NCBI GenBank assembly: GCA_904420535.1
Contig: CAJFVQ010000083.1
Coordinates: forward strand, 33,537-97,536
Origin: Candidatus Cryptoclostridium obscurum
GTDB taxonomy: Bacteria; Bacillota; Dehalobacteriia; UBA7702
DNA length: 64,000 nucleotides
Direction: 5' to 3'
Below the pieces are notes generated by a model. The model was not told where the DNA came from. It did no database searches and worked only from the letters and a program-made list of their open reading frames with translations. Within the stretch, counting starts at the first letter, position 1, and each line of letters opens with the position of its first letter. This document shows, piece after piece, positions 14,133 to 60,408 of this stretch. The position numbers and the translations under genes are program-made.

Positions 14133-14137
14133 TTGAT

Positions 14138-14166
14138 AAGCCCCGATTTTCGGGGCTTATTTTTAT
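14138..14166 (+). terminator. Intrinsic terminator forming the FMN riboswitch expression platform
   Basis: aagccccg / atttt / cggggctt followed by attttta. Confidence 0.6.
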
Positions 14167-14180
14167 GGAGTGTGATATCG

Positions 14181-15943: not shown

Positions 15944-15958
15944 GAAGGAGGAATGATA

Positions 15959-17176
15959 ATGAGTTTTTGTACCATTGAAGAAGCAATTTCCGACTTAAAA
16001 CAAGGAAAAATCGTCATTGTCGTTGACGATCCCGATCGTGAAAATGAAGGCGACCTTATTTGTGCGGGTGAATTTGCCACAACGGAAAACGTTAATTTTA
16101 TGGCCAGCTATGGCAAAGGTTTGATCTGTATGCCAATGAGCAGTGCAAATATCCATCGTCTCGGCTTGCGTCAAATGGTGGAACACAATACCGACAACCA
16201 TGAAACGGCTTTTACAGAAAGTATCGACCATGTTTCAACCACTACGGGAATTTCTGCAGTGGAGCGGTCGGTTACTGCCATGAAAGCAACAGAAGATGGG
16301 GCCCGCCCTGCCGATTTCCGTCGCCCTGGCCATATGTTTCCATTGGAGGCAAAATCCGGCGGTGTATTGATGCGTAACGGCCATACGGAAGCGACTGTGG
16401 ACTTGATGCGTTTGGCAGGATTAAAGGAGATTGGTCTTTGTTGCGAAATTATGCGCGATGACGGAACTATGATGAGAACCACAGAACTTATGGAATTTGC
16501 CGAAAAACATGGTTTGAAGATCACATCCATCAAGGCACTACAATCTTACCGAAAAATGTATGATAAATTTATGGTACGAGTCACTTCCTCGCATCTGCCC
16601 ACCAAATATGGTAAATTTATGCTTCACGGTTATGTGAATACTATCACACAAAAGCATCATGTGGCTCTTGTCATGGGGGATGTTGCCGATGGAAATCCTG
16701 TTTTATGCCGTGTTCACTCTGAGTGTCTTACCGGCGATGTCTTCGGTTCCTGTCGTTGTGACTGTGGCTTGCAGTTAGATTCCGCAATGCGCCAAATCGC
16801 CAAGGAAGGCCGAGGCATTCTTGTTTATCTTCGTCAGGAAGGTCGCGGCATTGGTTTGATCAATAAATTAAAGGCCTATGAACTTCAGGAAAAAGGTCTC
16901 GATACCGTTGAGGCGAATATTCAATTGGGATTTGCTCCAGACCTCAGGGATTATAGTGAGGGAAGCCAAATTTTAAAGGATCTTGGCGCAACGAAGTTGC
17001 GTTTACTAACCAATAATCCCACAAAAATTTCGGGTCTTTCCGATTATGGTATTGAGATCGTGGAACGAGTCAGCACGGAAATGCCGACAAATCCTTATAA
17101 TGAGTTTTATATGGAAACCAAAAAAGAAAAAATGGGCCACTTGTTAGAGCATGTCGAAGGACATCATCATAATTGA
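15959..17176 (+). CDS. ribBA: Bifunctional 3,4-dihydroxy-2-butanone-4-phosphate synthase / GTP cyclohydrolase II
   Basis: DHBP synthase N-terminal half. GTP cyclohydrolase II C-terminal half with CxxC..C Zn site (CRCDCG). RBS AAGGAGG 8 nt upstream of the ATG at 15959. Confidence 0.9.
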
Positions 17177-17194
17177 GAAAGGAATGTGTTTTGA

Positions 17195-17653
17195 ATGAAA
17201 AAAATTGAAGCGCAATTGAATGGAAACGGATTGAAAGTAGCAATTGTGGCAGCGCGTTTTAATGAATTTATTACTGGGCGCTTAATTGAAGGGGCAGAGG
17301 ATGGTCTTGTGCGGCATGGAGTTGATACTGATGATATTACATTGTACCGTGTCCCCGGTGCTTTTGAAATCCCAATGATGGCACAAAAGGTCGCATCCAC
17401 TGAAGTAGATGTGGTGATTTGCCTTGGTGCTGTGATCCGAGGCAACACACCTCACTTTGATTATGTTGCAGCGGAAGTTTCCAAAGGGTGTGCAAATGTA
17501 AGCTTGGAGTGCGGAAAACCTGTAATCTTCGGCGTATTAACTACTGATACCATTGAACAAGCCATTGAACGTGCTGGCACCAAAGCGGGAAATAAAGGTT
17601 ATGACGCCGCTGTGAGTGCCATTGAAATGGCGAATCTGGTGAGTATGATCTGA
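17195..17653 (+). CDS. ribH: 6,7-dimethyl-8-ribityllumazine synthase
   Basis: About 152 aa, lumazine synthase fold (VPGAFEIP). Confidence 0.9.
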
Positions 17654-33483: not shown

Positions 33484-33630
33484 ATTCATCTCCTTTATGA
33501 GAACTTATTTTCTATTATACAATATTTTGGGCAAAGATTCAATCGTTTTTATCCATATTTCTCTAGGGTGATCTGACTTGACAACGTATCATTAGATTTT
33601 TTATGATATAAACATCTTAAAATAAGTGAA

Positions 33631-43032: not shown

Positions 43033-43095
43033 TACTTTGAAAATTATCAAAATATTAAAAGTGTGAAAGTTATAAACTTCACGCTTTTAAAAAAT

Positions 43096-43122
43096 AAAGC
43101 CCACAAAATGGGCTTTAAAAGA
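43096..43122. terminator. Hairpin flanked by A and T runs (a possible terminator)
   Basis: aaagccca / caaaa / tgggcttt. Confidence 0.35.
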
Positions 43123-43547
43123 AAATAAAAAGTATGAAAGAAATACACATAAAAACTGTAGTAGCATTGTACCATTTTTTTCACTATTCTGTCAATCCTT
43201 TTTGAAGTAAATTATAGTAGTCATGACATCGGACAATCGTTAATCTATTTCTCACGAATGAAGATGTGTCACTTTTATCTTTAATTTACCGAATTTTCAT
43301 TTTATTTTGTACTGATTTTAACAGGATAGTGCTATAAGGTATTCCAATTTGTTATAGCAGTAAGAAAAAATATTTAGTAGTTATTAAAATAAATACGATA
43401 TTTTTATAAAATTTGTATAAAAATGCATATAATATGTTGATTCCTAACTGTTATAATAATAACAAATTGGAATCAATAAAAATAGTGAAACATGTTTTTT
43501 TCTCAAAAAATATGTTATAATATTGAAAACTATAAAAGTTCCTTAAT

Positions 43548-43680
43548 GGATGAAAAGGGAAATTGGTGAAAATCCAATGCGATCCCGTCACTGTGAAAAA
43601 GGGATGATTTTTATAACCACTGAACTTGAGTTTGGGAAGGAAAAATCATCAATGCTTTTAAGCCAGGAGACCTGCTTTTA
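43548..43680 (+). promoter_or_regulatory. Cobalamin (AdoCbl) riboswitch
   Basis: AAGGGAAattGGTGAAAATCC...CCCGtCACTGTGAaaaaGGG...GGGAAGG... and B12 box AGCCAGGAGACCTGC at 43661-43675. An extended -10 TGTTATAAT lies upstream at 43513-43521. Confidence 0.8.
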
Positions 43681-43737
43681 TAAATAGAAACAAGACCTAC
43701 GGAGGATAGGTGTGTTCTATCAGATCTTTTGGTATTT

Positions 43738-43766
43738 GCGCGCACACCTTTGGTGTGCGTTTTTAT
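43738..43766 (+). terminator. Intrinsic terminator downstream of the B12 riboswitch (the likely expression platform)
   Basis: gcgcgcacacc / ttt / ggtgtgcg followed by tttttat. Confidence 0.6.
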
Positions 43767-43811
43767 ATGCTAATTGTTAGGGTGCTGAAGTAACGAGAAG
43801 GTGGGTTAATT

Positions 43812-44750
43812 TTGGAGCTAAAACAGCTACAATATTTTGTGGTAAGTGTTGACATGGGTAGTTTTCACGCTGCAGCGAAGGCATTGTTGACAACACAGCC
43901 AAATGTGAGTAAAACCGTCAAATCATTGGAAGACGAATTAGGGATGACTTTATTGAAACGACATCGACATGGCGTTAGTATTACTCCGGAAGGCGAACCA
44001 ATTTATCGTCATGCCATTAGTGTCTTAAAGAATATGCAAGTGATTCGGGATATCAAAGAAGATCAAAACACAGAGAAATTATATATCTGTAGCACGCCCA
44101 ATCACTGTTTATCCTCTTCTTTAGCATCTTTTCATCGTGATTTTTCCGATCAGCCGATAAGAATGGATTTTTGGGAAGGAAGCGTTGAAGACGTAATCGT
44201 ACGCATTCATCGCAGAGAATCGGAAGTAGGATTCGTTTATATTTCCAATCGAAATATTTCGGCTTTCCGCAGCCACGTTAAAATCAAAGGCCTAGAATTC
44301 CATGAAATAACCAAAGCACCTCTTTATCTTTTTGTAGGAAAGAAAAATTCTTATTATTCTCGAGAATCCATTGATGAAAAAGCCATTTGCAAAATGCATT
44401 TTATTCAGCACTACGAAGAGCAGTATTCTTTATATAATCATTTGGGACATTTGCGTGAAGACGGCTTTTATAATGGAGAGAATACAAAAATGGCATCCAC
44501 CAACAGCGGTTATTTTTTAATGCAGCTTTTGAGTAATACAGAATATTGTACCATTGACAGCAGTTATTTGCGAAACGAATTACACTATGATGGAATTCGC
44601 GCCATTCCCATTTCATCTTGTGAGAACAGTATCATTTTTGGATATCTAAAACGATTAAAAAATCCGTTGTCTCCCATTGCACAGCGTTTTATTGATTATC
44701 TAAAAGCAGAATGTAAAAAACAAAAAGAAGAAGAGGAATTTGAATCATGA
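43812..44750 (+). CDS. LysR-family transcriptional regulator. The start codon is TTG.
   Basis: N-terminal HTH (MELKQLQYFVVSVDMGSFHAAAKAL). LysR substrate-binding fold. RBS AAGGTGG. Confidence 0.85.
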   Translation: MELKQLQYFVVSVDMGSFHAAAKALLTTQPNVSKTVKSLEDELGMTLLKRHRHGVSITPEGEPIYRHAISVLKNMQVIRDIKEDQNTEKLYICSTPNHCLSSSLASFHRDFSDQPIRMDFWEGSVEDVIVRIHRRESEVGFVYISNRNISAFRSHVKIKGLEFHEITKAPLYLFVGKKNSYYSRESIDEKAICKMHFIQHYEEQYSLYNHLGHLREDGFYNGENTKMASTNSGYFLMQLLSNTEYCTIDSSYLRNELHYDGIRAIPISSCENSIIFGYLKRLKNPLSPIAQRFIDYLKAECKKQKEEEEFES

Positions 44751-45718
44751 AATTGCAAAATATTATTGCTGAACAAGGGGAAAAATCAATAGGATATTTA
44801 GAGGTTCCCGGTACAGAGTTAAAGCTTCCCGCAACTCTGATATGTGGGGTACACGACGGAAAAACTGTATTGATCACCGGAGGAGTTCATAACGTAGAAT
44901 ATGTCGGTATTCAAGCCGCTATAGAACTGGCGGGATCCATTGACCCCAAAGAGGTCACCGGTAATCTTATCATTATTCCGCTAATCAACCGTTCCGGATT
45001 TGAGCACCGCACCATGAGCCTTGTTTATGAAGACGGTAAAAATTTAAACCGACAATTTCCCGGGGATGCTTCCGGTACAACGGCGCAAAAACTTGCTTAT
45101 TTTATGGAAAAGGAATTGTTTTCACAGGCTGACTTTTACATTGACCTTCACTGCGGCGACGGCTTTGAAGAATTGACCCCTTTTGTTTTCGCCCAGGGGA
45201 ACGCAGAAGAATATATAAATGAACAGTCCTTGAGAATGGCTAAAGCTGTGGACGTACCGTATATTATTCGCTCCCAGGCTCGTACCGGAGCTTATAACTA
45301 TGCGGGTCTATGTGGAATTCCCGGAATCCTGGTGGAACGCGGCTGTTCCGGACTTTGGTCCAAAAATGAAGTTGAGCTTTATAAAAAAGACATTAAAAAT
45401 GTATTACGTGTTTTAAAAGTTCTTTCTGGGGAAGATGAGACAACGCAAGACAAGACCATTTTTGACCGTGTAATTTATGAAAACTCCTCCCATGTCGGAT
45501 GCTGGTATCCGCAATTCTCTTCCGGAGATCGTATTCGTGCCGGTGATATTCTGGGCGTTACGAAAGACTATTTCGGACAGGAGTTGTTTTCTTGTGTAGC
45601 GAAAGCTGACGGTGTTATATTCCATCAAATCATTGGCCTCAACATTTTACAAAACAATCCGATGATTGCCTACGGCGTTTTAGAATCCGGCGATGTTAAT
45701 TATGGGGAGAACAAGTAA
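44747..45718 (+). CDS. Succinylglutamate desuccinylase / aspartoacylase (AstE/AspA, M14-like) family zinc hydrolase
   Basis: ITGGVHNVE (a variant of the HGNE motif). DLH zinc ligand. About 323 aa. Overlaps the lysR stop. Confidence 0.7.
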   Translation: MKLQNIIAEQGEKSIGYLEVPGTELKLPATLICGVHDGKTVLITGGVHNVEYVGIQAAIELAGSIDPKEVTGNLIIIPLINRSGFEHRTMSLVYEDGKNLNRQFPGDASGTTAQKLAYFMEKELFSQADFYIDLHCGDGFEELTPFVFAQGNAEEYINEQSLRMAKAVDVPYIIRSQARTGAYNYAGLCGIPGILVERGCSGLWSKNEVELYKKDIKNVLRVLKVLSGEDETTQDKTIFDRVIYENSSHVGCWYPQFSSGDRIRAGDILGVTKDYFGQELFSCVAKADGVIFHQIIGLNILQNNPMIAYGVLESGDVNYGENK

Positions 45719-45720
45719 AA

Positions 45721-46656
45721 ATGAAAAGAACACTGGCAAAAAGATTGCTACAAATGATCATTGTACTGTTTGGCATCAGCTTCTTTACATTTTGCCTTAC
45801 TTATCTCGCTCCCGGTGATCCAGTTCTTACCATGTATGCCGCTTCTGGAACCATGCCGTCAGAGGAAATAATAGAAGCAACTAGAGACGAGATGGGACTG
45901 AACGATCCATTTCTCATGCAGTATGCCCGTTGGCTTGGTAATTGTCTAAAGGGAGATTTTGGAACTTCATACTCCATGAATCAGCCGGTTTTATCAATCA
46001 TTGGAGAAAAAATTGTACCGACGTTGAAGTTAGCTTTTCTTTCCCTTCTAATTATGCTGGCAGTTGCAGTCCCTTTTGGGGTGATTGCTGCTGTGAAACA
46101 AAATAGGCCCATTGACTATCTGATTCGTGGTTGTACATTTCTGGGAGTCTCAATTCCTAATTTTTGGGTTGGTTTGCTTTTACTATATTTGTTTGCTCTG
46201 AAGTTGGGATTACTGCCAGTCGTTTCCACGGGAAACGGTATTTCTAAAATAATTCTACCTGCCATCACTTTAGCATTTGCGATGTCAGCAAAGTATACTC
46301 GACAGGTCCGCACTGCAGTTTTAGAAGAATTAAACCAAGATTATGTAGTGGGTGCCAGGGCACGTGGAATCGACGAAAGGACAATTCTTTGGCGGCACGT
46401 TTTTCCCAATGCATTGCTACCTCTTGTGACTCTTTTAGGATTGTCCCTAGGGAGTTTATTGGGAGGAACTGCTGTTGTTGAGGTCATCTTTTCGTATCCC
46501 GGTTTGGGCAATCTTGCGGTATCTGCCATTACTGCCTATGATTATCCGTTAATCCAAGCATATGTTTTATGGATTGCTCTGATTTATATGGTAATTAACT
46601 TGATTGTTGATCTATCCTATGATTTACTTGATCCTCGGATCAGAGAAAGCAGGTAA
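45721..46656 (+). CDS. ABC transporter permease (DppB/OppB/NikB family)
   Basis: Six TM segments. EAA-like loop. Confidence 0.85.
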   Translation: MKRTLAKRLLQMIIVLFGISFFTFCLTYLAPGDPVLTMYAASGTMPSEEIIEATRDEMGLNDPFLMQYARWLGNCLKGDFGTSYSMNQPVLSIIGEKIVPTLKLAFLSLLIMLAVAVPFGVIAAVKQNRPIDYLIRGCTFLGVSIPNFWVGLLLLYLFALKLGLLPVVSTGNGISKIILPAITLAFAMSAKYTRQVRTAVLEELNQDYVVGARARGIDERTILWRHVFPNALLPLVTLLGLSLGSLLGGTAVVEVIFSYPGLGNLAVSAITAYDYPLIQAYVLWIALIYMVINLIVDLSYDLLDPRIRESR

Positions 46657-46659
46657 CCA

Positions 46660-47544
46660 ATGAAAAAACTCAGAGTATTTATCAAAGAAAATAAATTGTT
46701 TGCGATCCTTAGTATTGCTTTGGTTTTTATTATTTTATCCGCGGTTTTTGCCCCGCTTTTGGCTCCCTATGATCCGGATACTGCCGATATGGGGAACGCT
46801 TTTCAATCGCCTGATGAGGATCACTGGTTTGGCACCGACAAATTGGGTCGGGATGTTTTTTCACGAGTATTGTTTGGTACCAGGGTTTCTTTGGCTGCAT
46901 CATTGGTACTTGTCTCGTCAATTTTCGTTATCGGAACAACCCTTGGTGTTATTGCTGGTTATTTTGGCGGAAAAATTGACACTGTTATTATGCGTTTGTC
47001 AGATATGATGATTTCTTTTCCCGGCATGGTACTTGCTATTGCGGTCGCAGGAATTCTCGGTGCCAGTGTGATCAATGCCATCATCGCTATTATGATTGTC
47101 AGTTGGACAAAATATGCCAGATTGGCCCGAAGTCTTGTGCTCAAGATTCGTCACAAAGATTTTGTTTATGCCGCAGAAGTAACAGGAACCAAAACTTCCC
47201 GTATTTTATTGCGGCATATGATTCCTAACGTGATCCCCACATTGGTGATTACAGCAACCACTGACATCGGCACCATGATTTTGGAATTGGCTGGGCTTTC
47301 CTTCCTTGGGTTTGGCGCACAGCCGCCAACACCAGAATGGGGGCTTATGTTGAATGAGGGAAGAGCATATATGTTATCCTGTCCATGGCTGATGATTTTC
47401 CCCGGTTTGGCTATTTGCCTTGTTGTTATCGTCTTTAATTTATTGGGTGATAGTCTCAGAGATATTCTTGACCCCAAGTTTGAAAATCAACGTCGGCGTG
47501 CGTTAAGTATGCAAAAAACGAAAAAAGTAAATGTGGGTAGTTGA
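46660..47544 (+). CDS. ABC transporter permease (DppC/OppC/NikC family)
   Basis: TM topology and EAA-like motif. Confidence 0.85.
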   Translation: MKKLRVFIKENKLFAILSIALVFIILSAVFAPLLAPYDPDTADMGNAFQSPDEDHWFGTDKLGRDVFSRVLFGTRVSLAASLVLVSSIFVIGTTLGVIAGYFGGKIDTVIMRLSDMMISFPGMVLAIAVAGILGASVINAIIAIMIVSWTKYARLARSLVLKIRHKDFVYAAEVTGTKTSRILLRHMIPNVIPTLVITATTDIGTMILELAGLSFLGFGAQPPTPEWGLMLNEGRAYMLSCPWLMIFPGLAICLVVIVFNLLGDSLRDILDPKFENQRRRALSMQKTKKVNVGS

Positions 47545-47590
47545 AGTGCCCAAATTTGAAAGTGCAAAAGCACAAATAAAGGAGGAAAAC

Positions 47591-49162
47591 ATGAAATCTA
47601 TTAAAAAAGTTGCTGCTTTGGTTATGGCGGCTGTGATCTCAGTTACAGCATTTGCCGGTTGTGGAGGGGAGGATCGTTCTGCGTCTTCGGATACTTTGAA
47701 TTTTGGATGTTTTAATTATTCCGATTCACTCGATCCTTCCGTTATGGTAAATGCTGCTTGGGCCACCAGCCGTTATGGCATTGGAGAATGCCTGTTTCGC
47801 TTTGATGATGAGATGAATGCTCAACCATTACTTTGCGATGAGTATGAAGTTGATGATACGAACACCATTTGGCAATTCCATATTCGCGATGGCATAAAAT
47901 TCTCAAATGGCAATGAAGTAAATGCTTCATCCGTGGTGGCGTCCATTGAACGTATGTATGAAGAAGAAGCCAATGGAGATGGGAGTTCGACGCCTTCGGT
48001 TTATATGGAATATGAATCCATCACCGCAGATGATGAGAGCAATACTGTCACCATCGTTACAACGCAGCCTTATGCCGATCTTTGTGCAGTCCTTGCACAC
48101 CCGTTTTTTGTCATTCTCGATACAGCTGCTGGAACAGATTATAATGAAAACCCCATTGGCACTGGTCCTTATGCCATTGATTCTTATGAAGTCGGCACCT
48201 CTATTGCTATGGTAGCCAACGAGTATTATTGGAACGGTGAAGTTCCCTATGAAAATCTCAATATTATTTTTATTGGTGACAGTACCACCAAAGCTATGGC
48301 CATAGAAAATGGTGACGTTGATCTAGTCGAGAATATTACAACCCCAAGCGACTTGGACAGGCTGCGCAATGATTCCAGTTATCATGTTTCCGAAGCTACC
48401 GGTGTTCGCTGTGCTTTTTCCTACATGAATCAAAACGGAGTCCTTGCTAACGACACTTTAAGACAAGCAATTCTCATGGCGCTTGATGATGATACCATGT
48501 GTGAAACCACTGTTGGAGGTATGTATACCGCAGGATATTCCGTATTACCTTCTACTTTGGATTACGGTTACGAAAATTTAACTGACGCTACCCCCTATGA
48601 TGTGGAGGGTGCCAAAAAACTTTTGGACGATGCCGGAATCGTGGATAGTGATGGCGATGGATATCGTGAACTCAACGGAGAAACCATCGATTTGAATTAT
48701 CTGACTTATGACGGCAGAAACCTCGCAGATTTTACAGAAGCAGTTGTTTCCTACTTAAAAGAAATTGGCATTAAAGCCACGATTCATACTACTGATGCCG
48801 ATACGGAATGGAACATGCTTGTGTCGGGAGAATATGACCTTTTGGCCAACAACTGGTTAACGGTTCCTGTCGGTGACCCTTATGCATATATGGATAATTG
48901 GTATAGCAAATCTAGTGCCAACTACTGCGGTTATGCCAACGAGGAATATGATGCGATATATGAACAATTGAAAACGGAAACCGATGAAAATACTCGCCGG
49001 GAGATGTTTCAACAGTTACAGCAAATTTTGATTGATGATTCTGCAGTATTGGTTCATGGTTATTATCACAGTACTATGATTAGCAATGAAAACGTAATCG
49101 GGGCGGAAATTCCCACAGCTGATTATTATTGGATTACAACGGATATCAAACCCGCCTCATAA
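47591..49162 (+). CDS. ABC transporter substrate-binding lipoprotein, SBP family 5 (peptide/nickel type)
   Basis: Lipoprotein signal (AFAGCGG). SBP_bac_5 length and architecture. RBS AAGGAGG. Confidence 0.85.
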   Translation: MKSIKKVAALVMAAVISVTAFAGCGGEDRSASSDTLNFGCFNYSDSLDPSVMVNAAWATSRYGIGECLFRFDDEMNAQPLLCDEYEVDDTNTIWQFHIRDGIKFSNGNEVNASSVVASIERMYEEEANGDGSSTPSVYMEYESITADDESNTVTIVTTQPYADLCAVLAHPFFVILDTAAGTDYNENPIGTGPYAIDSYEVGTSIAMVANEYYWNGEVPYENLNIIFIGDSTTKAMAIENGDVDLVENITTPSDLDRLRNDSSYHVSEATGVRCAFSYMNQNGVLANDTLRQAILMALDDDTMCETTVGGMYTAGYSVLPSTLDYGYENLTDATPYDVEGAKKLLDDAGIVDSDGDGYRELNGETIDLNYLTYDGRNLADFTEAVVSYLKEIGIKATIHTTDADTEWNMLVSGEYDLLANNWLTVPVGDPYAYMDNWYSKSSANYCGYANEEYDAIYEQLKTETDENTRREMFQQLQQILIDDSAVLVHGYYHSTMISNENVIGAEIPTADYYWITTDIKPAS

Positions 49163-49215
49163 TTGATTACTTTTATGCCGACATAAAAGTTAGCGTAGTA
49201 ATCACGGAGAAACTT

Positions 49216-50001
49216 ATGTTATCAATCAGCAATTTAACAGTTCAATATGGAGAGAACCCACCTGCATTGGAGCATTTTAATTTGGAAATGGACCCGGGAG
49301 AAATTGTATGCATTGTGGGGGAAAGCGGAAGCGGAAAAACAACAATCATCCGTAGCATTATGGGCCTGCTGCCCAGTAATGGAAATATTGTAGAAGGCAG
49401 TATGTATTTTGAAGGAAATTCATTACTATCATATTCCAAAGAGCAATGGAGAAGCCTTCGTGGTACAAAAATTTCCATTATTTTTCAGGATTCCGGTGCC
49501 ATGATCAATCCCATCCGAAAAATTAAACATCAGTTTGTGGAGTATATACGCACACATCAAACGATGTCATCTCATGAGGCAGAGAATCTTGGCAAAGAAA
49601 TGCTGGCAAAAATGCAGTTGCCCAGTGTGGACAATATTATGAACAGTTATGCATTTCAGCTCAGCGGAGGCATGCGACAGAGAGTTGGCATTGCCATGGC
49701 TATGACATTTCAACCCAAGCTTTTGATGGCTGATGAGCCTACCAGTGCTTTGGATGTTACAACACAGGCACAAATTGTACGTCAAATATTGGAGTTGCGT
49801 AATCGGTTTCATACAGGAATTATCCTTGTCACTCACAATCTCGGCGTTGCGGCATATATGGCCGATAAAATTATGGTAATGAAGGATGGGCACATTGTCG
49901 ATATGGGCAAACGAAGTAAGGTTCTACAGTATCCTCAAAGTGACTATACAAAGAAATTATTAGCTTCCGTACCTGCCTTGGATGGTGAAAGATATGTATG
50001 A
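49216..50001 (+). CDS. ABC transporter ATP-binding protein (DppD/NikD-like)
   Basis: Walker A GESGSGKT. Signature LSGGMRQR. Walker B LLMADEPTSALD. Confidence 0.85.
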   Translation: MLSISNLTVQYGENPPALEHFNLEMDPGEIVCIVGESGSGKTTIIRSIMGLLPSNGNIVEGSMYFEGNSLLSYSKEQWRSLRGTKISIIFQDSGAMINPIRKIKHQFVEYIRTHQTMSSHEAENLGKEMLAKMQLPSVDNIMNSYAFQLSGGMRQRVGIAMAMTFQPKLLMADEPTSALDVTTQAQIVRQILELRNRFHTGIILVTHNLGVAAYMADKIMVMKDGHIVDMGKRSKVLQYPQSDYTKKLLASVPALDGERYV

Positions 50002-50953
50002 AAAAGAAAATATGATCTTGGAAACAAGGCATCTTGTCAAACGTTTTCCTGTTGCAAACCATCGTTATCTTACGGCTTGTGATGATATTTCGTTGAAATT
50101 TTATCGGGGACAAACCCTTGGCATTGTGGGAGAAAGCGGCTGTGGGAAAAGTACTTTTATGAAAATGTTGGTTCATTTGGAGGAGCCGTCCGCAGGGGAA
50201 ATACTTTTTCATGGTGAAGATATTTTAAAGTTCAGCAAAAAAAAGCGCCGCTTGAACCGGTGTAAGATCCAAATGGTTTTTCAGGATCCTATGGCTTCCT
50301 TTGATCCCAAAATGAGGATTCGTGACATTATTTGCGAACCACTTTTAAACTTTAATCTTATTTCCAAGAAAGATAAAAATAGCATTGCAAAGGAATTTTT
50401 AGAAATGGTAGAGCTCCCCGCAGAAATGGCGGATCGTTTCCCCCATAGTTTGAGCGGTGGTCAACGACAACGCATAGGTGTTGCCCGAGCCTTAACGTTG
50501 AATCCGGAAATTATGATATGCGATGAGGCCACCTCTGCCTTGGATGTTTCAGTACAAAAAAGTATCATGGAACTCATTGCAAGGCTCCAGCGGGAAAAGG
50601 GGATCTCCATTGGCTTTATATGTCATGATGTGGCCTTAGTGGGGCAAATTTCCCACCAAGTCGCTGTCATGTATCTGGGAAATATTGTTGAAATCCTTCC
50701 CGGCGATCATTTAAAAGACCAGGGGCGTCACCCTTATACCAAAGCACTGATGTCATCAATTTTTCATTTGGATATGGACTTTCAGAAAAAAATAGAAAGT
50801 CTGGAAGGCGACGTTCCTAGTCCATTAAACATTCCTCCGGGATGTCCTTTCCAGAACCGTTGCAAACAGCGTATAAAGCGGTGTTTGGTTGAAAAGCCAT
50901 ATTTGAAAGAAATTGGTGAGCAACATTTTGCAGCTTGCCACTTGGACATCTGA
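49994..50953 (+). CDS. ABC transporter ATP-binding protein (DppF/NikE-like) with C-terminal oligopeptide-type extension
   Basis: Walker A GESGCGKST. Signature LSGGQRQR. C-terminal CPFQNRC. Confidence 0.85.
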   Translation: MYEKENMILETRHLVKRFPVANHRYLTACDDISLKFYRGQTLGIVGESGCGKSTFMKMLVHLEEPSAGEILFHGEDILKFSKKKRRLNRCKIQMVFQDPMASFDPKMRIRDIICEPLLNFNLISKKDKNSIAKEFLEMVELPAEMADRFPHSLSGGQRQRIGVARALTLNPEIMICDEATSALDVSVQKSIMELIARLQREKGISIGFICHDVALVGQISHQVAVMYLGNIVEILPGDHLKDQGRHPYTKALMSSIFHLDMDFQKKIESLEGDVPSPLNIPPGCPFQNRCKQRIKRCLVEKPYLKEIGEQHFAACHLDI

Positions 50954-50960
50954 GGTTAAA

Positions 50961-52313
50961 ATGAAGTACCGTTCTTTCACAGAAGGTAGCATCGGCAAAA
51001 GCATTTTTTTCTTTTCTCTACCGCTATTGGCCAGCAGTTTCATTCAGCAATTATATAGCACTGTAGACTTGATTTTTGTGGGCCACTTTACAGGAACTCA
51101 TGCCTATGCGGCGATTGGGGCAAGTGATCTTCTTATCACCTGCCTCATTGGCTTTTTTAATGGTATGGCGGTAGGAACTAATGTGATCTCCTCACATTAC
51201 TATGGCAGTGAAAATTACGACAAACTAAAAAAACTGATGCGCACTGTATTCATTTTCGGTATTGCAGGCGGACTTCTTTTGATGGCAATTGGCATTTGTT
51301 TCGCTCCACTCTTTCTTTCCTGGATGGATACTCCTGACGAAATTCATGGTCTTGCAGTGCGATATTTGCGAATCTATATGATGGGAATCATATCCATCAT
51401 TCTTTATAATCTTTGTTCTGGTATTCTTCGAGCGATGGGTGATTCGCGATCGCCGATGATGTTTCAACTAATAGGTTGTGCGATCAATATTTTTGCTGAT
51501 TTCCTGCTGATTGCGGTTTGGGATTTTGGCGTAACTGGAGCGGCATTGGCTACCTTATTTTCACAAACAGTTGCTATGGTCTTATGTGTTGTACATTTAC
51601 ACCGCCTGGATTCGAAAATTTCATTGAATTTTTTTCCGTTATCCTGTCCCCAAGATGTTCTTATTCCTGTTCTAAAGATCGGCATTCCTGTTGGGATCCA
51701 GTCCATTGTCATTACATTGTCTAATATTATTATACAATGGAAAATTAACGGTTTTGGCGTCGATGTTATCGCTGCTTTTGCAACTTATTTTAAAGTAGAA
51801 ATGGTGATTTATCTGCCAATTTTAGCTTTGGGGCAAGCTATAGTATCCTTTATTGGGCAAAATTATGGCGCTTTGCAATTTAACCGTATCAAAAAGGGTT
51901 TTCGGATGTGCCTGATTTTTGGCCTTATTTTAACAGTTATGACCAGCGTTCTGTTGACTTTGGCAGGGGCATTTATTTTTGGACTTTTTACCGATGATCA
52001 CCATGTGATTCAATATGGTTGCCGTATTATTACAGTTACCTTTCCTTTCTACTTTTTATACGTAATTCTAGAGTGTTACAGTTCTCGATTAAGAGGAATG
52101 GGCCGCGCCGTTGCCCCCATGGTAATTACTTTGACGAGCTTTTGCGGGATACGTATTTTTCTTTTGTTCATTTTGCTCCATTTTCACGACGAAGTATCTG
52201 CTGTAGCGGCAACCTATCCCATTTCTTGGGCAATCGCAGTAATTCTTTTATGGCTTTACTATAGGTTTACTGAGAGACCGAAAGGGGATAGATATATTGG
52301 TATTGATAACTGA
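50961..52313 (+). CDS. MATE family efflux transporter
   Basis: Twelve TM segments. MATE duplicated halves. Confidence 0.8.
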   Translation: MKYRSFTEGSIGKSIFFFSLPLLASSFIQQLYSTVDLIFVGHFTGTHAYAAIGASDLLITCLIGFFNGMAVGTNVISSHYYGSENYDKLKKLMRTVFIFGIAGGLLLMAIGICFAPLFLSWMDTPDEIHGLAVRYLRIYMMGIISIILYNLCSGILRAMGDSRSPMMFQLIGCAINIFADFLLIAVWDFGVTGAALATLFSQTVAMVLCVVHLHRLDSKISLNFFPLSCPQDVLIPVLKIGIPVGIQSIVITLSNIIIQWKINGFGVDVIAAFATYFKVEMVIYLPILALGQAIVSFIGQNYGALQFNRIKKGFRMCLIFGLILTVMTSVLLTLAGAFIFGLFTDDHHVIQYGCRIITVTFPFYFLYVILECYSSRLRGMGRAVAPMVITLTSFCGIRIFLLFILLHFHDEVSAVAATYPISWAIAVILLWLYYRFTERPKGDRYIGIDN

Positions 52314-52322
52314 TAAACAATG

Positions 52323-54064
<1,742 letters not shown>

Positions 54065-54092: not shown

Positions 54093-54135
54093 CGCAGAGT
54101 AACTTTAGTTATTCTGCGTTTTTCTCGTTAATATT
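54093..54135. terminator. Bidirectional hairpin terminator
   Basis: aaaaacgcagagtaac / ttta / gttattctgcgttttt. Confidence 0.5.
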
Positions 54136-54607
54136 CCGAAAGTCTGGCAGGGCAGAAACGGCACAAAGATCCTTTATCATTCATAAAGAGGCGTTTGGCT
54201 GTACAATAATAGTCATTTCCTTTTTGGTAAACTTTTCCTTCGGAAAAACTCATTCCTGGAGGATGCAACGGTATTTTTGCCACAAAAGCACGATAAGTAT
54301 TTAAAATGCGGATAAACGATTTTAATGATTCTTCTCCTGGAGCGCAGCGGTCCATATATTGGTTGATTTGATCCTCAAATCGTTGAATTAAAAGGGGATT
54401 TAACTCATCACCATAAAATTTTTCTGAATGTTTTAATAGATTGAGCATAGTTTCTGCATTATAGCGGCGGTTTAAAATGGCAATATAATCATCGGCAGAA
54501 GGATCCGGGGCAGCGGCACAAAGTTCATGGTATTCCTGCTCCAAAGCATCTACGGAATAAAGCGCTGCTTCGGCCTGAAGCCGCTTTAATAATTGTTTTG
54601 AATTCAT
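54128..54607 (-). CDS. Hypothetical protein (159 aa) with a C-terminal CxxxC...CxxC cluster
   Basis: RBS AGGAG 8 nt upstream. 26-nt gap to the upstream gene, so it is the second gene of a two-gene operon. No recognisable catalytic motif. Confidence 0.55.
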   Translation of the reverse strand: MNSKQLLKRLQAEAALYSVDALEQEYHELCAAAPDPSADDYIAILNRRYNAETMLNLLKHSEKFYGDELNPLLIQRFEDQINQYMDRCAPGEESLKSFIRILNTYRAFVAKIPLHPPGMSFSEGKVYQKGNDYYCTAKRLFMNDKGSLCRFCPARLSEY

Positions 54608-54633
54608 CGTGTTTTCTCCTATCTTGAAATGTA

Positions 54634-55653
54634 TTAATTGATGGGCGGAAAGTTCCCCAACAGTCCCATAAAATCGTCAATAATTTCTAAATTTGTCCGT
54701 TCTTCCAATTGGATTCCAGTTTTTTTGCAAAGATCTTCCAAAAGATATCGCAAAGTACCAGAGCGAATAATGATCAACCTAGGTCTGCCATTTTCACGAA
54801 TACTTTCCAAAAGCATTTCAATTAATACTTTATGGTGGTCTTGTTGCTCTTCCAAAACTTGTTGATTTTCGATAAATCCTCCGTCATGGTCGGCAAGGAT
54901 ACAAATTCGAGGAAAAATCGGCCGAAAACCGTATTTTGCAGTCAGAGGATTTGGTAAGTAATTGATATCGAGTTCAATGCTCCGTGCCGTTTTAGGTAGT
55001 TTTTTCAACCTTGCAATAAAAAGTTCATCTTCAAATTGGAGGGTTTGGTATTCAACACTGAAGACGGGTAGCTTTTCTGCTAAAACTTCCCAACTGCCAT
55101 CGGATAATTGATGAAAACAGAGACATTCTTGGTTTTTATAATTTGCATCAACTGCTTTTTTTTCTAGTAGCTGAAGTCCTGTATATAAATCATTTAAGGC
55201 TCCTGTTAAGCGGTCTACCTCTGATGGTTCCAAATACCACGGTGCATAACCGGGAATATAAGAACGGAAAAAAGGATATCCCAAAGGGCCAACTTGTGGC
55301 TGATATTCCGCCAATTCAATGGAGCTCAAGTCTCCGTTGCCCAAAGAAGCCCTACTGCTATAATAAACCGTTAAACAGTTTTGATAAGCAATCAAAGCGC
55401 TAAAAGGAATTTCGCTTCCAAATTGCAGCAATTGAAAAAAACCGGCAAGGGCTTGATAGCCGAAATAAACCGAAACGCCGCAATGATCATTTTCTTCTCC
55501 CAATATGGAATAAAATATAGGTTCATCAGTACCGTCTTTATAAACGGCGATGATCTCATTGTTGCGGAATCGTTTCCAAGGTGTATTGTTTTTAATTTGA
55601 TCCGATATCTTGAACAAGGATTGCCATTGTTCTTTGGTCGCCAGATGAAACAT
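54634..55653 (-). CDS. Hypothetical protein (339 aa), first gene of a two-gene operon of unknown function
   Basis: RBS AGGAGG. Soluble. No motif I can assign to a known family. Confidence 0.55.
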   Translation of the reverse strand: MFHLATKEQWQSLFKISDQIKNNTPWKRFRNNEIIAVYKDGTDEPIFYSILGEENDHCGVSVYFGYQALAGFFQLLQFGSEIPFSALIAYQNCLTVYYSSRASLGNGDLSSIELAEYQPQVGPLGYPFFRSYIPGYAPWYLEPSEVDRLTGALNDLYTGLQLLEKKAVDANYKNQECLCFHQLSDGSWEVLAEKLPVFSVEYQTLQFEDELFIARLKKLPKTARSIELDINYLPNPLTAKYGFRPIFPRICILADHDGGFIENQQVLEEQQDHHKVLIEMLLESIRENGRPRLIIIRSGTLRYLLEDLCKKTGIQLEERTNLEIIDDFMGLLGNFPPIN

Positions 55654-56151: not shown

Positions 56152-59100
56152 TTATTTTTTTTCCTCTGTTAAACGTTTTTTCGCAACAGACATCATTAAC
56201 TTAATGCGGTTGATTTGATTGGATTCACTGGCACCGGGGTCATAGTCTACGGCGACAATATTGCTATCGGGAAATTTGCGTCGTAATTCCTTTAGCGCAC
56301 CGCGGCCGGTAATATGATTGGGTAAACAGGCAAAAGGCTGCATACAGACAATATTATCAGCACCTTGATGAATCAGTTCAATCATTTCTCCGGTCAGAAA
56401 CCATCCTTCACCGGCTTGATTTCCTAATGAAACCACATCTTTGGCATAGTCTGCTAATTGATAGATGGTGGCTGGAGGATCGAAGCGTTTGCTTTGGGAT
56501 AACGCTTTTTTCATGGACTTTCTCGTCCATTCCAGGACAGCAATGATTAATCGTGATATACGCGCTGCTTTTTTGGAACCTTCCAGATATTCTGCTTTAT
56601 AAATGCTGTTATAAGCGCAGTAAAGGAGGAAATCCATAAGCGAAGGCATAACGGCTTCGCCACCCTCTTTTTCTATTAATTCTACAATATGGTTGTTGGC
56701 ATCGGGAGAAAACTTTACTAATATCTCTCCTACCAGACCAACGCGGGGTTTCTTTTCATCAACCAAAGGCAGGCGATCAAATTCTTGTACCAATTCCTTC
56801 ATATCTTTTTTAAATCGCGACATTTTACCGATACGAACGGTCTCTTTTCCTCGTTTCACCCATTTTTGGTAAAGAGCTTCTGCGGAACCCTTTTCCTTTT
56901 CATAGGGACGCACGCGGTAAAGAACGTTCATCAGCACATCACCATAATTGACTGCGATCAAGCATTGTTTGATCAGTTGATATGTCCATTCCATACCCGG
57001 ATGTTTTTCCAACATCTGCGCAGAAATTGCAATGACCGGTATATGTCCGAGTCCTGCATCTTTTAATCCTTTGCGAATGAAAGAAACGTAGTTGGTCGCA
57101 CGGCACTGACCACCGGTTTGGGTCATTAAAAGTGAAACGTTATTCAGATCATAGCGGCCACTTTTCAAAGCTGCGATTAACTGACCCGTTGTGAGAATAC
57201 ATGGGTAACAGGCGTCATTATGAACGTATTTCAGCCCTTCCTCCACCGATTCTACGTCTACTTGAGGCAAAACTTCCAAATTATATCCATTCGCCTGCAT
57301 GGCATCGGTGAGAAATTGAAAATGAATGGGGGACATTTGCGGTGCCAATAAGGTGTGGCGACTCTTCATTTCTTTGGTAAACAAAGGCCGTTCTTCGGGT
57401 TTTATCTCGCTGAAATGGGATTGTTCTTTTTCCTTCTGTTTTTTTTCATCAATGGTAACCTTGAGAGAGCGAATACGGATTCTTGCTGCACCGAGATTAT
57501 CTCCCTCGTCAATCTTAATGGTGGTATAAATCTTATTGTGCCGTTCCAGAATCTCAGCAACCTGATCACTGGTGACAGCATCAAGACCGCAGCCAAAGGA
57601 AGTCAGTTGAATCAAATCCAGATCGTCCCGCTGAGCAACAAAAGTTGCTGCTGCATAAAGGCGAGAGTGGTATGACCATTGATCCCGTACGCGAAGCGGG
57701 CGTTCTGTAGGAACCAGGTGAGCAACGCTATCCTCGCTGAGAACCGCCATTCCCTGGGCAGTAACAAGGTTAGCAATGCCGTGATTAATTTCAGGATCTG
57801 TGTGGTAGGGGCGTCCGGCCAGAACGATCCCATGAATATCGTGATTCTTGATATAATCCAGAGCGTTAATTCCCGCCTGCTTCATATCTTCTTTATAATG
57901 GCTGAGTTCTGCCAAAGCGTCATCAACGGCGGAAGTAATCTCCTGCAAAGAAATTTGCCAATCGGTTTCCTTGGATAAATATTGATGAAGTACTTTAATT
58001 AGTTTCTCACGATGGTTCAGCGTCACATAAGGGCGCAGATATTGAATATTTTTTTCTCGTAAATCTTCTACATTATTTTTAATTACATCGGGATAACCGC
58101 TGACAACTGGGCAGTTGAAATTATTATCGCTATCGGTATATTCTTTTTGTTCATAAACAACAGCAGGATAGAAGATTCGTGAAATTCCCTTATCAATTAA
58201 GGATTGAATGTGTCCATGCGCCAATTTTGCAGGATAGCAAACCGCTTCGGAAGGGATCGTTTCCATTCCCTGTTCAAAAATCTTTTTATCGCTTTTGGGA
58301 GAAAGGATCACCCGGAACCCGAGTTTCGTTAAAAAGGTAAACCAAAACGGATAATCATCGTACATATTCAGGACTCTGGGAACGCCAATCTCTCCTCTGG
58401 ATGCTTCGGATTTTTTTAGTGGAGTATACTGAAAAAGACGTTTGTATTTGTAATCAAAAAGATTGGGAATATCATTTTTTTTGACCTCAACTCCAGCGCC
58501 GCGTTCACAGCGATTTCCTGAAATAAAGTGGCTGCCGTCAGCAAATTCCATGACCGTCAGCAAACAGTGATTTGCACATTTCTCACAATGACGGTAACTT
58601 TTATCATAACCGAATTTTTCAAGTTCTTCTTCTGAAATAAGAGTAGTAGGGGAGCCGTCATAGCGCTCCATGGCAATTAACGCAGCTCCAAAAGCTCCCA
58701 TGAGTCCTGCAATATCAGGGCGAATAACTTCTCGTTTTGTTTCCTTCTCAAAGGCACGAAGAACCGCTTCATTATAAAAAGTTCCGCCTTGGGCCAAAAT
58801 TTTTTCACCGAACTCTTCTGGCCGACGAATTTTAATCACTTTATATAGAGCATTTTTAATGACAGAGTAGGAAAGTCCCGCAGAAATATCTTCTACGGAA
58901 GCACCTTCTTTTTGGGCTTGTTTTACTTTGGAGTTCATAAAAACGGTACAACGATTTCCCAAATCCACAGGTGTACGTGATTTGGTAGCCGCGGCTGCGA
59001 AATCTTGAACTGACATATCAAGACTTTTAGCAAAAGTTTCAATGAATGAGCCGCATCCTGACGAACAGGCTTCGTTTAAAATAATGCTTTCAATGATGCC

Positions 59101-60408
59101 ATTGTGGATGCGAATGGCTTTCATGTCTTGTCCGCCAATATCAAGGATAAACTCAACCCCTGGCAAAAATTCATCAGCGGCTTTGTAATGGCTCATGGTT
59201 TCCACTTCACCAATATCTGCGTGGAGTGCTGCCTTGACCAAGTCTTCGCCATAACCCGTCACAGCAGAAGAAACAATTTTTGCTGTCGGTGGCAATTTTT
59301 GATAAATGTCTTTTAAAATTTCAATGCCGCGGTCCACCGGTTCTCCTTGATTTCCCGCATAAAAAGAATAGACGATATCTTTGTTTTCGTCAATCAATAC
59401 CGCTTTTGATGTGGTAGAACCAGCATCAATTCCCAAAAAGAGATTGCCTTTTGCCTCGGATAGGGGCTTTTGGCCGGCCTTTGCCTTGTTGTGACGGGCA
59501 CGGAACGTTGCCAATTCCTCTTCGTTGGCAAAAAGAGGCTCTAACCCCTGGGCTTCATTTAATTCTTCCACATTTAACTGCTCAAGACGACCGATTACAT
59601 CAGAAATAAATTCGTCTTTCGCTTCTTTTTCATGATTCAGCGCCAAAGCACAGCCCATGGATACATAATAGTGGGCATTTTCCGGCAAAATCGCAGTTTC
59701 ATCATTAAGATCCAAAGTGTCCATGAAAGCCTGCCGAAGCTGGGGAAGAAAATGAAGGGGACCGCCGAGAAATGCGACTTTGCCACGAATTGGTTTTCCG
59801 CAGGCTAAGCCGCTGATGGTTTGGTTAACAACCGCCTGGAAGATGGAAGCGGCAATATCTTCTTTGGCAGCACCCTGATTGATCAGAGGCTGAATATCCG
59901 TTTTGGCAAAAACACCGCAACGGGAAGCAATGGGATAAATCGTTTTATGATGAGTTGCCAATTCATTGAGGCCTGCGGCATCAGTCTGTAATAGCAGTGC
60001 CATTTGGTCGATAAATGCTCCGGTGCCACCGGCGCAAGCACCATTCATTCGCTGTTCCATCACTTTGCCAAAATAAGTGATTTTTGCATCTTCGCCCCCT
60101 AGCTCAATGACGACGTCGGTTTGGGGAATATAGTTTTCAACCGCTTCTGTGCAGGCAATTACTTCTTGGATGAAGGGGAGTCCCACGTGTTCAGCGAGAC
60201 TGAGTCCCCCCGAACCCGTAATTGCCATTTTAATTTTTACATCGCCGATGGCTTCCATGGTTTGCTTTAAAACGTCGGAGGCAGTGGCACGAACATCGGA
60301 AAAATGGCGTTGATATTGTTGAAATATAATATCGGCCTCGTTGGACAACACGGTTACCTTGACAGTGGTGGATCCAATATCAAGACCGAGAACTGAAGGT
60401 TGTTTCAT
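56152..60408 (-). CDS. Large fusion protein: tandem BadF/BadG/BcrA/BcrD-type ATPase (CoA-substrate-specific enzyme activase) domains plus a C-terminal 2-hydroxyacyl-CoA dehydratase-like / DUF2229-type region
   Basis: Two acetate/sugar-kinase-fold ATPase repeats ([11 protein letters not shown]..., [11 protein letters not shown]...). Cys clusters typical of activases (CEKCANHC). About 700-aa C-terminal dehydratase-component-like domain. 1418 aa. Confidence 0.75.

Follow-up and report, generated by a model that had tools for sequence, protein, structure and literature searches.

In Candidatus Cryptoclostridium obscurum (Bacillota; Dehalobacteriia), a 64,000-nt stretch of contig CAJFVQ010000083.1 (assembly GCA_904420535.1, forward-strand positions 33,537 to 97,536; hereafter the window, numbered from its first letter) carries a cobalamin riboswitch followed by genes for a LysR-family regulator, an AstE/AspA-family deacylase, a five-component ATP-binding cassette (ABC) importer of the peptide/nickel family and a MATE-family exporter. 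We regard this as probably a metal-acquisition operon, most likely for cobalt, that is repressed by vitamin B12 and subject to dual control by LysR and B12. In order along the window, its features are:

43341..43355, - strand: distal copy of the candidate LysR box (ATAACAAATTGGAAT read on the - strand), an exact match 118 nt upstream of the proximal copy
43440..43473, + strand: proximal candidate LysR operator, comprising the exact box ATAACAAATTGGAAT (43459-43473) and a degenerate inverted partner ATTCCTAACTGTTAT (43440-43454)
43513..43521, + strand: predicted promoter, read from the sequence, with an extended -10 TGTTATAAT, a weak -35 and a putative transcription start
43519..43693, + strand (that of the operon genes): cobalamin aptamer, covariance-model match to RF00174
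~43661-43675, + strand: B12 box AGCCAGGAGACCTGC, within the RF00174 aptamer
43694..43765, + strand: expression platform, a hairpin ACCTACGG...TAGGTGTG and then an intrinsic terminator (terminator scan and folding)
43812..44750, + strand: LysR-family regulator gene with a TTG start, the first gene behind the terminator (Pfam)
44747..45718, + strand: AstE/AspA-family (DoeB-like) deacylase gene (PF24827), its start overlapping the lysR stop
45721..46656, + strand: ABC permease gene, NikB/Opp2B type (NCBIfam NF045470)
46660..47544, + strand: ABC permease gene, NikC/Opp2C type (NCBIfam NF045474)
47591..49162, + strand: gene for a family-5 substrate-binding lipoprotein (lipobox FAGC; SBP_bac_5, signal peptide)
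49216..50001, + strand: ABC ATPase gene, NikD/OppD-like (ABC_tran)
49994..50953, + strand: ABC ATPase gene, DppF/OppF/NikE-like, with an oligo_HPY C-terminal region (Pfam and NCBIfam)
50961..52313, + strand: MATE-family efflux transporter gene (MatE, TIGR00797)
52324..52347, both strands: bidirectional intrinsic terminator closing the operon and the convergent glpK (terminator scan)

When the whole window was scanned against Rfam, two matches exceeded the gathering score, one to the Cobalamin and one to the FMN family. The Cobalamin riboswitch (RF00174) scored 115.7 bits against a gathering score of 31.5 (E 2.6e-28) and covered model positions 1-189 of 189 on the gene strand, in agreement with an initial annotation of this DNA, which had described an adenosylcobalamin-type element there. 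The B12 box AGCCAGGAGACCUGC in the 3′ part of the aptamer lines up with the consensus AGCCAGGAGACCuGC in the RF00174 alignment. The intrinsic terminator, previously placed at 43738-43766, was recovered as a stem at 43740-43760 (nine pairs, six of them G-C) with a T run behind it. A consensus fold of seven orthologous leaders recovers both hairpins of the expression platform, with compensatory changes at 9 of 19 pairs, and the terminator is kept in all seven. In the window, AGGTGTG and CACACCT form a possible antiterminator pairing, and the terminator’s 5′ arm has its complement in a segment that the hairpin ACCTACGG...TAGGTGTG overlaps. The logic would be that of an OFF switch, in which corrinoid binding favours the terminator. 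Extended -10 elements of the type TGTTATAAT or TGTTATATT are also found in loci L007, L008, L033, L086 and L088 of the survey described below. The initial annotation had named a separate promoter between terminator and lysR, together with operon expression indifferent to B12, as an argument against its reading; the promoter scan found no promoter-like site on the + strand from 43412 to 43953, a range that includes this gap.

The riboswitch-operon genes all lie on the + strand, separated by overlaps or short gaps. The lysR gene starts at TTG 43812 (MELKQLQYF...), with GAAGGTGGG 6 nt upstream, and the T run of the terminator ends some 46 nt before the TTG, close to the ~45 nt first given. Its end at 44750 overlaps the deacylase start at 44747 as ATGA, which confirms the chaining of the two genes, and the PF24827 match confirms the AstE/AspA assignment of the second. 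Open reading frames (ORFs) and Pfam matches agree equally with a co-directional five-component importer and MATE gene, and the closing terminator, formerly delimited as 52323-52356, was found on both strands. The lipoprotein signal MKSIKKVAALVMAAVISVTAFAGC of the substrate-binding protein (SBP) indicates that its true start is 47591, not 47531; the starts of the SBP, both ATPases and the MATE protein are those of gene calls on identical public contigs (offset +34746).

Both permeases of the importer pass the nickel-permease equivalogs of NCBIfam, the Opp2B-type permease with 404.6 bits against a cut-off of 350 (NF045470) and the Opp2C-type permease with 343.9 bits against 300 (NF045474). The SBP matches SBP_bac_5 with 264 bits (Pfam), and its top-scoring NCBIfam models are Opp5A_nikA and nickel_nikA, ahead of Opp, Dpp and Gsi. 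Similarly, the solved chains closest to it include the nickel-binding 3t66, SaNikA (4ofj) and Brucella NikA (4oer), ahead of DppA/OppA; haem-binding proteins are also among its relatives in the PDB. Against models of CntA, CntC, CntD and CntF, the importer proteins scored far under the cut-offs.

The B12-gated module is widespread in Clostridia and not an oddity of this genome. Relatives of the deacylase number about 1,700, all clostridial by the available names; a scan of one genome per species gave 417, from which the best 79 loci (L numbers) were retrieved together with 10 kb on either side. In these loci, an nhmmer profile built from two seed riboswitches produced 63 matches, nearly all on the deacylase strand. 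Rfam confirmed the riboswitch in each of the 12 loci checked that were nhmmer-positive or had been retrieved through LysR, and in none of the 7 checked that lacked an nhmmer match. A same-strand Cobalamin riboswitch is present in 52 of the 79 loci, same-strand Nik-type permeases of at least 45% identity in 57, and both together in 46; the deacylase gene lies within 6 kb of the permeases in 46, and a MATE orthologue of at least 40% identity occurs in 25. The gene set had been called an atypical target for a B12 riboswitch. This view was not upheld, since cobalt transporters are standard targets, RegPrecise includes dpp/nik operons, and riboswitch and permeases coincide at the frequency just given. 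The exact gene order of the window recurs in L007 (an uncultured Peptococcaceae metagenome-assembled genome (MAG), 72-90% identity), L008 and L009 (Clostridiales/Clostridium MAGs) and L033 (Terrisporobacter), and the same order minus lysR is found in Romboutsia timonensis, L057 and L063. In Clostridium magnum, C. drakei and many Lachnospiraceae loci, the riboswitch immediately precedes permB or the SBP gene. Across the survey, the first gene after the riboswitch is permB in 18 cases, the SBP gene in 14, the deacylase gene in 5, a P1B heavy-metal ATPase gene in about 5, lysR in 4 and a gene for a CsoR/RcnR-family repressor in 2, and in 17 loci the deacylase gene lies solely upstream of the riboswitch.

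Some of these genomes carry further elaborations. In Acetobacterium species, C. magnum and some Lachnospiraceae (L028, L035, L046, L027, L006/L011), there are two to three tandem Nik-type ABC operons, and every one of them has a B12 riboswitch or a deacylase copy to itself; the second deacylase of C. magnum is truncated. In Blautia/Lachnospiraceae modules, the second ATPase gene has behind it a gene for a secreted lipoprotein of 400-420 aa that carries a signal peptide (L068:16803-18050, L050:7307-8503, L026:8062-9330). This protein has no sequence relative in Pfam, NCBIfam or the PDB and is absent from the window; it could be an extracytoplasmic accessory of the importer. In Terrisporobacter, a regulator of the PocR-sensor/AraC family (L033:16449-17480; PocR domain 164.6 bits) is encoded behind the MATE gene of the orthologous operon. 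PocR domains are linked to the regulation of B12-dependent propanediol and ethanolamine use.

Gene context in other genomes points to a metal substrate. CsoR/RcnR-like repressors are encoded first behind the riboswitch in L014 and L041 (Acetobacterium), and P1B ATPases of the Zn/Cd/Co type are the first riboswitch-controlled genes in L022, L045, L047 and L054 (Lachnospiraceae). ArsR regulators and a GDT1 cation antiporter gene are among the module neighbours elsewhere, and CbiO/CbiQ-like genes lie behind the MATE gene in Lachnospiraceae TWA4. The literature is consistent with this. Cobalt transport is a main class of B12-riboswitch target (PMC3766115, PMC7689651), and RegPrecise lists as cobalamin-riboswitch operons dppABCDF-CTC01405 and dppABCDD of C. 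tetani and nikABC-dppDD-metE of C. bolteae (PMC3766115). Nik-family operons of C. tetani and Desulfitobacterium hafniense with a B12 riboswitch in front were treated as cobalt exceptions among NikA orthologues (Zhang 2009, PMC2667541), and the passage concerned cites Rodionov 2006 for riboswitch-preceded Nik-family operons. Moreover, binding of Co(II) and Ni(II) is reported for a NikZ-like SBP of clostridial origin, and it is far tighter when the metals are complexed with histidine (10.1101/820670). A study of corrinoid starvation in Dehalobacter did not mention the module. From this indirect evidence, we consider it rather likely that the imported substrate is cobalt or a cobalt chelate.

The P1B ATPase of these Lachnospiraceae (L022:816-3353, also L045, L047 and L054; TIGR01512, 478 bits) has a long N-terminal array of CGCGEDHGH-type His/Cys/Asp repeats, and the Nik-type permease genes come after its gene; an efflux-type pump would here be induced together with an importer when B12 is low, for which there is no ready explanation. 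The C. carboxidivorans operon named ‘ana’ (Diep et al.) differs in content from the system described here (two SBPs, an ECF S-component and methyltransferases), no riboswitch was found in the C. carboxidivorans locus of the survey (L018), and the operon may serve as an analogy for Co/Ni-histidine binding only. In Blautia, a his operon (HisF/IE fusion) directly upstream of the deacylase gene hinted at a histidine-derived chelator, an idea abandoned because other Lachnospiraceae have a different gene set there.

The LysR protein scores 70 bits against 26.6 for HTH_1 and, marginally, 29.3 bits against 28 for LysR_substrate (Pfam). In L007, L008, L009 and L033, the same place is taken by orthologues with 52-81% identity. 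Relatives with 41-53% identity, retrieved independently by protein similarity, lie within riboswitch-controlled Nik-type operons in L086, L088 and L089, which are three of the four contexts examined; there lysR is the first gene (L086), the last (L088) or stands just ahead of the MATE gene (L089), each time with a Cobalamin riboswitch before it. The gene is therefore part of a riboswitch-controlled unit in at least seven other species (L007, L008, L009, L033, L086, L088 and L089), and it directly follows the terminator in the window, L007, L008, L009, L033 and L086. In L014 it lies behind the riboswitch after two other genes, in L037, L023 and L065 it lies upstream of the riboswitch, and in L010, L057 and L063 it is absent. 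The proposal that the riboswitch gates a transcription factor thus stands as far as the location of lysR inside the riboswitch unit is concerned, but its position varies and its predicted operator is local. The wider proposal of a B12-responsive regulatory cascade fared less well: with a lysR gene that is variable in position or missing and an operator predicted at the operon’s own promoter, LysR would be a local co-regulator and not the head of such a cascade.

LysR is predicted to bind the box ATAACAAATTGGAAT, which fits the T-N11-A pattern and is centred at about -62 from the putative transcription start. Exact copies of the proximal box stand in the window, L007 and L086, and copies with 1-3 mismatches in L008, L009, L033, L037, L071 and L088, a palindromic form ATTCCAATTTGGAAT occurring in L009 and L088; in all nine the box lies upstream of the riboswitch. 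L007 has the distal box too, as an exact copy, and L008 has it with 2 mismatches, the spacing being 117-119 nt. Between the end of the proximal box and the -10 hexamer there are 42 nt in the window, L007 and L086 and 44 nt in L009 and L033, although the sequence separating the two has diverged among these loci; the corresponding gap is 46 nt in L037, 32 nt in L088 and, by eye, about 43 nt in L008. A search of 1.41 Mb of non-redundant loci returned eight matches at up to 1 mismatch, compared with 0.1 in shuffles, and seven of the eight lie 54-188 nt upstream of a B12 riboswitch. In Acetobacterium loci, a box ATGCnAAATTGGAAT stands between lysR and permB. Within the 64-kb window, no further box at up to 2 mismatches was found besides the two at the operon’s own promoter. 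The weight of the box lies in its exactness, its position and its conservation across species. As judged from these comparisons, the conserved order is that of candidate LysR box, predicted promoter, riboswitch and transporter, and a lysR gene placed behind the terminator is just one of several options, though a recurrent one. One Acetobacterium woodii MAG shows another arrangement (L014:9270-12160; similar in L041), where a riboswitch of 120.5 bits is followed by genes for a CsoR/RcnR-family repressor, the deacylase and LysR, with a LysR-type box behind lysR and ahead of permB; this looks like a two-step path, from B12 to regulators to transporter, rather than plain attenuation.

The deacylase matches PF24827 (AstE_AspA_cat) with 92.9 bits against a threshold of 25 (Pfam). 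Residues H48, E51, H135 and E197, in an HxxE...H pattern, are invariant in 21 homologues; by analogy with aspartoacylase, we take the first three to be zinc ligands and E197 to be the catalytic base. An AlphaFold model of the protein (pLDDT 90.5) was matched by Foldseek to 6twm, 3cdx and 3na6 (E 1e-26 to 1e-29, TM 0.8-0.86), the best being DoeB/EutE 6twm with a TM of 0.86 and 25% identity; the score against the DoeB equivalog TIGR02994 was 102 bits and did not reach the cut-off of 402.7. No signal peptide was predicted, and the enzyme is presumably cytoplasmic. The exporter matches MatE with 192.5 bits in two stretches and TIGR00797 with 218.4 bits against a cut-off of 147.4. In C. magnum, C. 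drakei and L016, an EamA-family gene is found directly behind the deacylase gene. Deacylase and exporter are functionally linked to the importer, as their adjacency is kept in many gene orders, and the deacylase most likely processes an N-acyl-amino-acid-like compound tied to the imported chelate.

These observations suggest the following mechanism. Transcription would begin at the extended -10 promoter (~43513-43521), and the leader would fold as a class-I-like cobalamin aptamer. With plentiful corrinoid, the terminator at 43740-43765 would form and leave the downstream genes silent, while scarce B12 would permit read-through into a single mRNA for LysR, the deacylase, the Nik-type importer and the MATE protein. 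The importer would then supply corrinoid synthesis with Co(II), which, if the uptake of Ni-(His)2 by NikA-type proteins is a guide, probably enters as a small chelate; the deacylase and exporter would act as conserved partners of the importer. LysR would bind the T-N11-A box near -62 and the distal copy 118 bp upstream, both at the same promoter, so that LysR with its effector may act at initiation and B12 at elongation. As lysR lies behind the terminator, the supply of the regulator would itself be gated by B12, and high B12 would do away with the message and, in the longer run, with the regulator too. With LysR as an activator, the shut-off would be sharper and more persistent; with LysR as a repressor, the response would be damped.

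A more speculative extension, which we put forward tentatively and think rather improbable as a whole, is a B12-controlled cobalt metallophore cycle. A small N-acyl-amino-acid-like chelator would be exported by the MATE or EamA-family protein, its Co(II) complex caught by the SBP and brought in by the Nik-type importer, the DoeB-like deacylase would either mature the chelator or cleave it in the cytoplasm to release cobalt, and LysR would sense the chelate or its product. Siderophore esterases, which release iron, are a model for a deacylase that frees cobalt from a chelator. Should this hold, no dedicated cobalt-chelator system would have come before it, nor any metallophore system under a vitamin riboswitch; if deacylase and exporter are incidental, what remains is an ordinary cobalt-uptake riboswitch operon.

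Several results weigh against a B12-repressed cobalt operon under dual control, or against parts of it. The SBP falls under the NikA cut-offs (Opp5A_nikA 241.5 bits against 600, nickel_nikA 155.7 against 393), as do the ATPases under theirs (nikD 234.2 bits against 318.7, nikE 232.6 against 332.55), and with all three below the curated Nik cut-offs it is the context on which the assignment of substrate depends. No riboswitch lies inside 10 kb in about one third of the deacylase loci, and the module is therefore not exclusively tied to B12. The 64-kb window contains no corrinoid-biosynthesis gene; the operon contains no chelator-synthesis gene, all ORFs from riboswitch to terminator being assigned and none to a synthase or dehydrogenase. 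The minimum-energy fold of the expression platform gives the terminator state only, and in the leader comparison the antiterminator pairing was not clearly kept in L008 and L063, for which reasons the switching mechanism is one that we infer. The number of boxes in the window at 2 mismatches is not significant (2 found against 0.8 expected), and since an extended -10 is able to function unaided by an activator, LysR may be a repressor and not an activator.

Of the other explanations, the nearest is that the importer carries nickel, or a broad range of Ni, Co and Zn, and that the B12 riboswitch is one of several inputs to a general metal-chelate module. The passing of nickel equivalogs by the permeases, the NikA-type models that best fit the SBP and the third or so of modules lacking a riboswitch would all agree with this, many hosts are acetogens, which need nickel for CODH/ACS, and CcSBPII of C. 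carboxidivorans held Ni-His more tightly than Co-His (10.1101/820670). However, a B12 OFF switch is physiologically sensible for cobalt but would not be so for nickel, the operon has no gene for NikR or a nickel enzyme next to it in the window, and riboswitch-preceded Nik-family operons have been treated as cobalt-specific exceptions (PMC2667541); we judge a nickel or general metal transporter unlikely. Against readings that involve no metal, the main argument is the co-transcription of metal-sensor and metal-efflux genes behind the same riboswitch in other genomes. This applies to a methionine bypass, in which failure of MetH would be met by importing an N-acyl amino acid or peptide from which the deacylase frees the amino acid, most plausibly methionine. 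Such B12-independent alternatives, e.g., metE, are indeed controlled by B12 riboswitches, and nikABC-dppDD-metE forms one riboswitch operon in C. bolteae (RegPrecise, PMC3766115); the SAM-riboswitch regulon of B. cereus includes an aminoacylase and an opp operon (RegPrecise), and the AstE/AspA family hydrolyses N-acyl amino acids and dipeptides. A bypass would nevertheless leave the RcnR/CsoR-like repressors, the P1B ATPases behind the same riboswitch and the ArsR, GDT1 and CbiO/Q neighbours unexplained and the conserved exporter without a role, and the SBP is nearer to nickel-binding than to peptide-binding models, which makes it quite improbable.

Salvage of corrinoids or their precursors, which the initial annotation had offered, would have the SBP5 importer take up a bulky tetrapyrrole-like compound, the AstE-like amidohydrolase trim an amide as CbiZ does, and the MATE protein expel the by-product. 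B12 riboswitches very often control corrinoid transporters (PMC3766115, PMC7689651), family-5 SBPs can hold ligands as large as haem, as the haem-binding PDB relatives show, and the enzyme is an amidohydrolase. Yet nothing points specifically to salvage: the corrinoid importers that are known belong to the BtuFCD type, the relatives closest to the permeases and SBP are metal-chelate systems, the deacylase’s closest relative in fold works on an N-acetyl amino acid of four carbons, and the neighbouring metal-sensor and metal-efflux genes are left out of account. We hold it for very doubtful. Lastly, LysR could be the true output, a B12-responsive master regulator of distant genes with which the transport genes merely share a transcript. 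The place of lysR directly behind the terminator in six loci (the window, L007, L008, L009, L033 and L086) would suit such a role, and the loci of the A. woodii type, with the riboswitch before csoR-astE-lysR and a box before permB, would be a true two-step cascade. However, a search that covered the 64-kb window, not whole genomes, found boxes at up to 2 mismatches only at the operon’s own promoter, the box always accompanies the transporter operon, and lysR, besides varying in position, is absent from the otherwise identical operons of L010, L057 and L063. To a master regulator we accordingly give very little credence.

The cobalt reading can be set against known systems. Clostridial Nik/Dpp operons with a B12 riboswitch (C. 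tetani, D. hafniense and C. bolteae) share with the window a riboswitch directly before a five-component importer and the same presumed induction at low B12. Unlike the window, these operons, in the descriptions concerned, comprise transporter genes and one unnamed gene, and those descriptions give no AstE-like deacylase, MATE or EamA protein, LysR or box; as cobalt-riboswitch operons they are predictions. S. aureus NikABCDE, which imports Ni-(L-His)2, resembles the window importer in several respects: the Opp2B/Opp2C cut-offs are passed, the SBP is best matched by Opp5A_nikA and has SaNikA 4ofj near to it, and it is a lipoprotein SBP in a Gram-positive organism. The window differs in an SBP at 241 bits against 600 and ATPases below cut-offs, in its predicted control by a B12 riboswitch and LysR, in having no nickel or urease link, and in the extra deacylase, exporter and regulator. 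Opine metallophore loci (S. aureus cntKLM-cntABCDF-cntE for staphylopine; P. aeruginosa cntOLMI for pseudopaline) likewise combine a peptide/nickel-family importer or its equivalent with a dedicated small-molecule exporter, and both systems handle Co and Ni among other metals. Their exporters are an MFS protein (CntE) and an EamA-type protein (CntI); that of the window is MATE, with an EamA-family protein in C. magnum, C. drakei and L016. Unlike the Cnt systems, which are regulated by Zur or Fur, the window operon would be regulated by B12 and has neither CntL (nicotianamine-synthase-like) nor CntM (opine dehydrogenase), its sole enzyme being a hydrolase.

CbtJKL of Sinorhizobium meliloti and CbiMNQO are comparable in being cobalt importers under a B12 riboswitch or inside cob/cbi clusters (PMC7689651). 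They belong to unrelated families, CbtJ being BtuF-like and CbiMNQO an ECF system without an SBP. Consequently, the earlier label of a Nik/Cbt-JKL-type cobalt-nickel system holds for its Nik half, given the permease cut-offs passed and the metal-homeostasis neighbours, whereas ‘Cbt-JKL type’ fits the function and not the family. In Listeria and Enterococcus, riboswitch-controlled non-coding RNAs act in trans on regulators of propanediol and ethanolamine use, EutX sequestering EutV. The riboswitch of the window would by contrast be a plain cis attenuator before the coding sequence of a regulator; what it has in common with AspocR/PocR and EutX/EutV is that a cobalamin riboswitch decides whether a regulator acts. 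For B12 riboswitches that act on regulators, PMC7689651 cites Mellin 2014. DoeB/EutE (6twm), the N-alpha-acetyl-L-2,4-diaminobutyrate deacetylase, is the best fold match of the window deacylase and has the HxxE...H triad in common with it, but the identity is only 25%, the equivalog cut-off is missed, and no ectoine-catabolism genes lie nearby.

In acetogens, gut Lachnospiraceae and other anaerobes, the making of corrinoids is limited by the supply of cobalt. To our knowledge, few cobalt importers have been characterised beyond CbiMNQO, NiCoT and CbtJKL, and Nik/Dpp-type systems behind B12 riboswitches have been predictions for some 20 years. The coupling of a B12 riboswitch to a Nik/Dpp-type importer for cobalt is thus already known, as a prediction. 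What the present analysis adds is that these importers travel with a conserved DoeB-like deacylase, often with a MATE protein and in some lineages with a dedicated LysR, that there is a candidate operator with fixed promoter geometry, and that the gene for the regulator is often found behind the riboswitch, which would make the operon responsive to B12 together with a second signal. No association of the deacylase, MATE or LysR with B12 riboswitches was found in the literature searched, whose incomplete coverage makes this weak evidence; within that scope, the partnership with a DoeB-like deacylase, the MATE gene in about one third of loci, the EamA-family gene behind the deacylase gene in three, the dedicated LysR with its candidate operator and the recurrence of regulators (LysR, RcnR-like) behind the riboswitch appear undescribed. 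A vague annotation is in this way turned into testable hypotheses, on the chelate that is carried, the signal to LysR and the existence of a cobalt chelator, and cultured carriers exist in R. timonensis, C. magnum, C. drakei, Acetobacterium species and Lachnotalea glycerini.

The rest of the window consists of the chromosomal housekeeping genes of an anaerobic Firmicute (nrdD, priA, fmt, rsmB, prkC, mutSL, miaA, lexA, polA). Downstream of glpK, at 54128-55653 (-) and 56152-60408 (-), lie genes for a DUF2115 protein, whose family has been described as archaeal, for a protein with DUF7309/DUF6930 and for a fused BcrAD/BadFG-type activase of 1418 aa with DUF2229, all unrelated to the riboswitch operon. 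Between the DUF4491 gene and the riboswitch operon, at 43090-43195 (-), the promoter scan gave its top match (43195-43166; 11 of 12), made up of TTGACA, 18 nt and TACAAT with a TG ahead of it. An intrinsic terminator on the - strand only (43117-43095) comes next, and the two together predict a transcript of about 70 nt without an annotated gene. The FMN riboswitch (RF00050, 102.7 bits) at 14005-14120 (+) directly precedes ribD, ribE, ribBA and ribH (14124-17653), an ordinary riboflavin operon.

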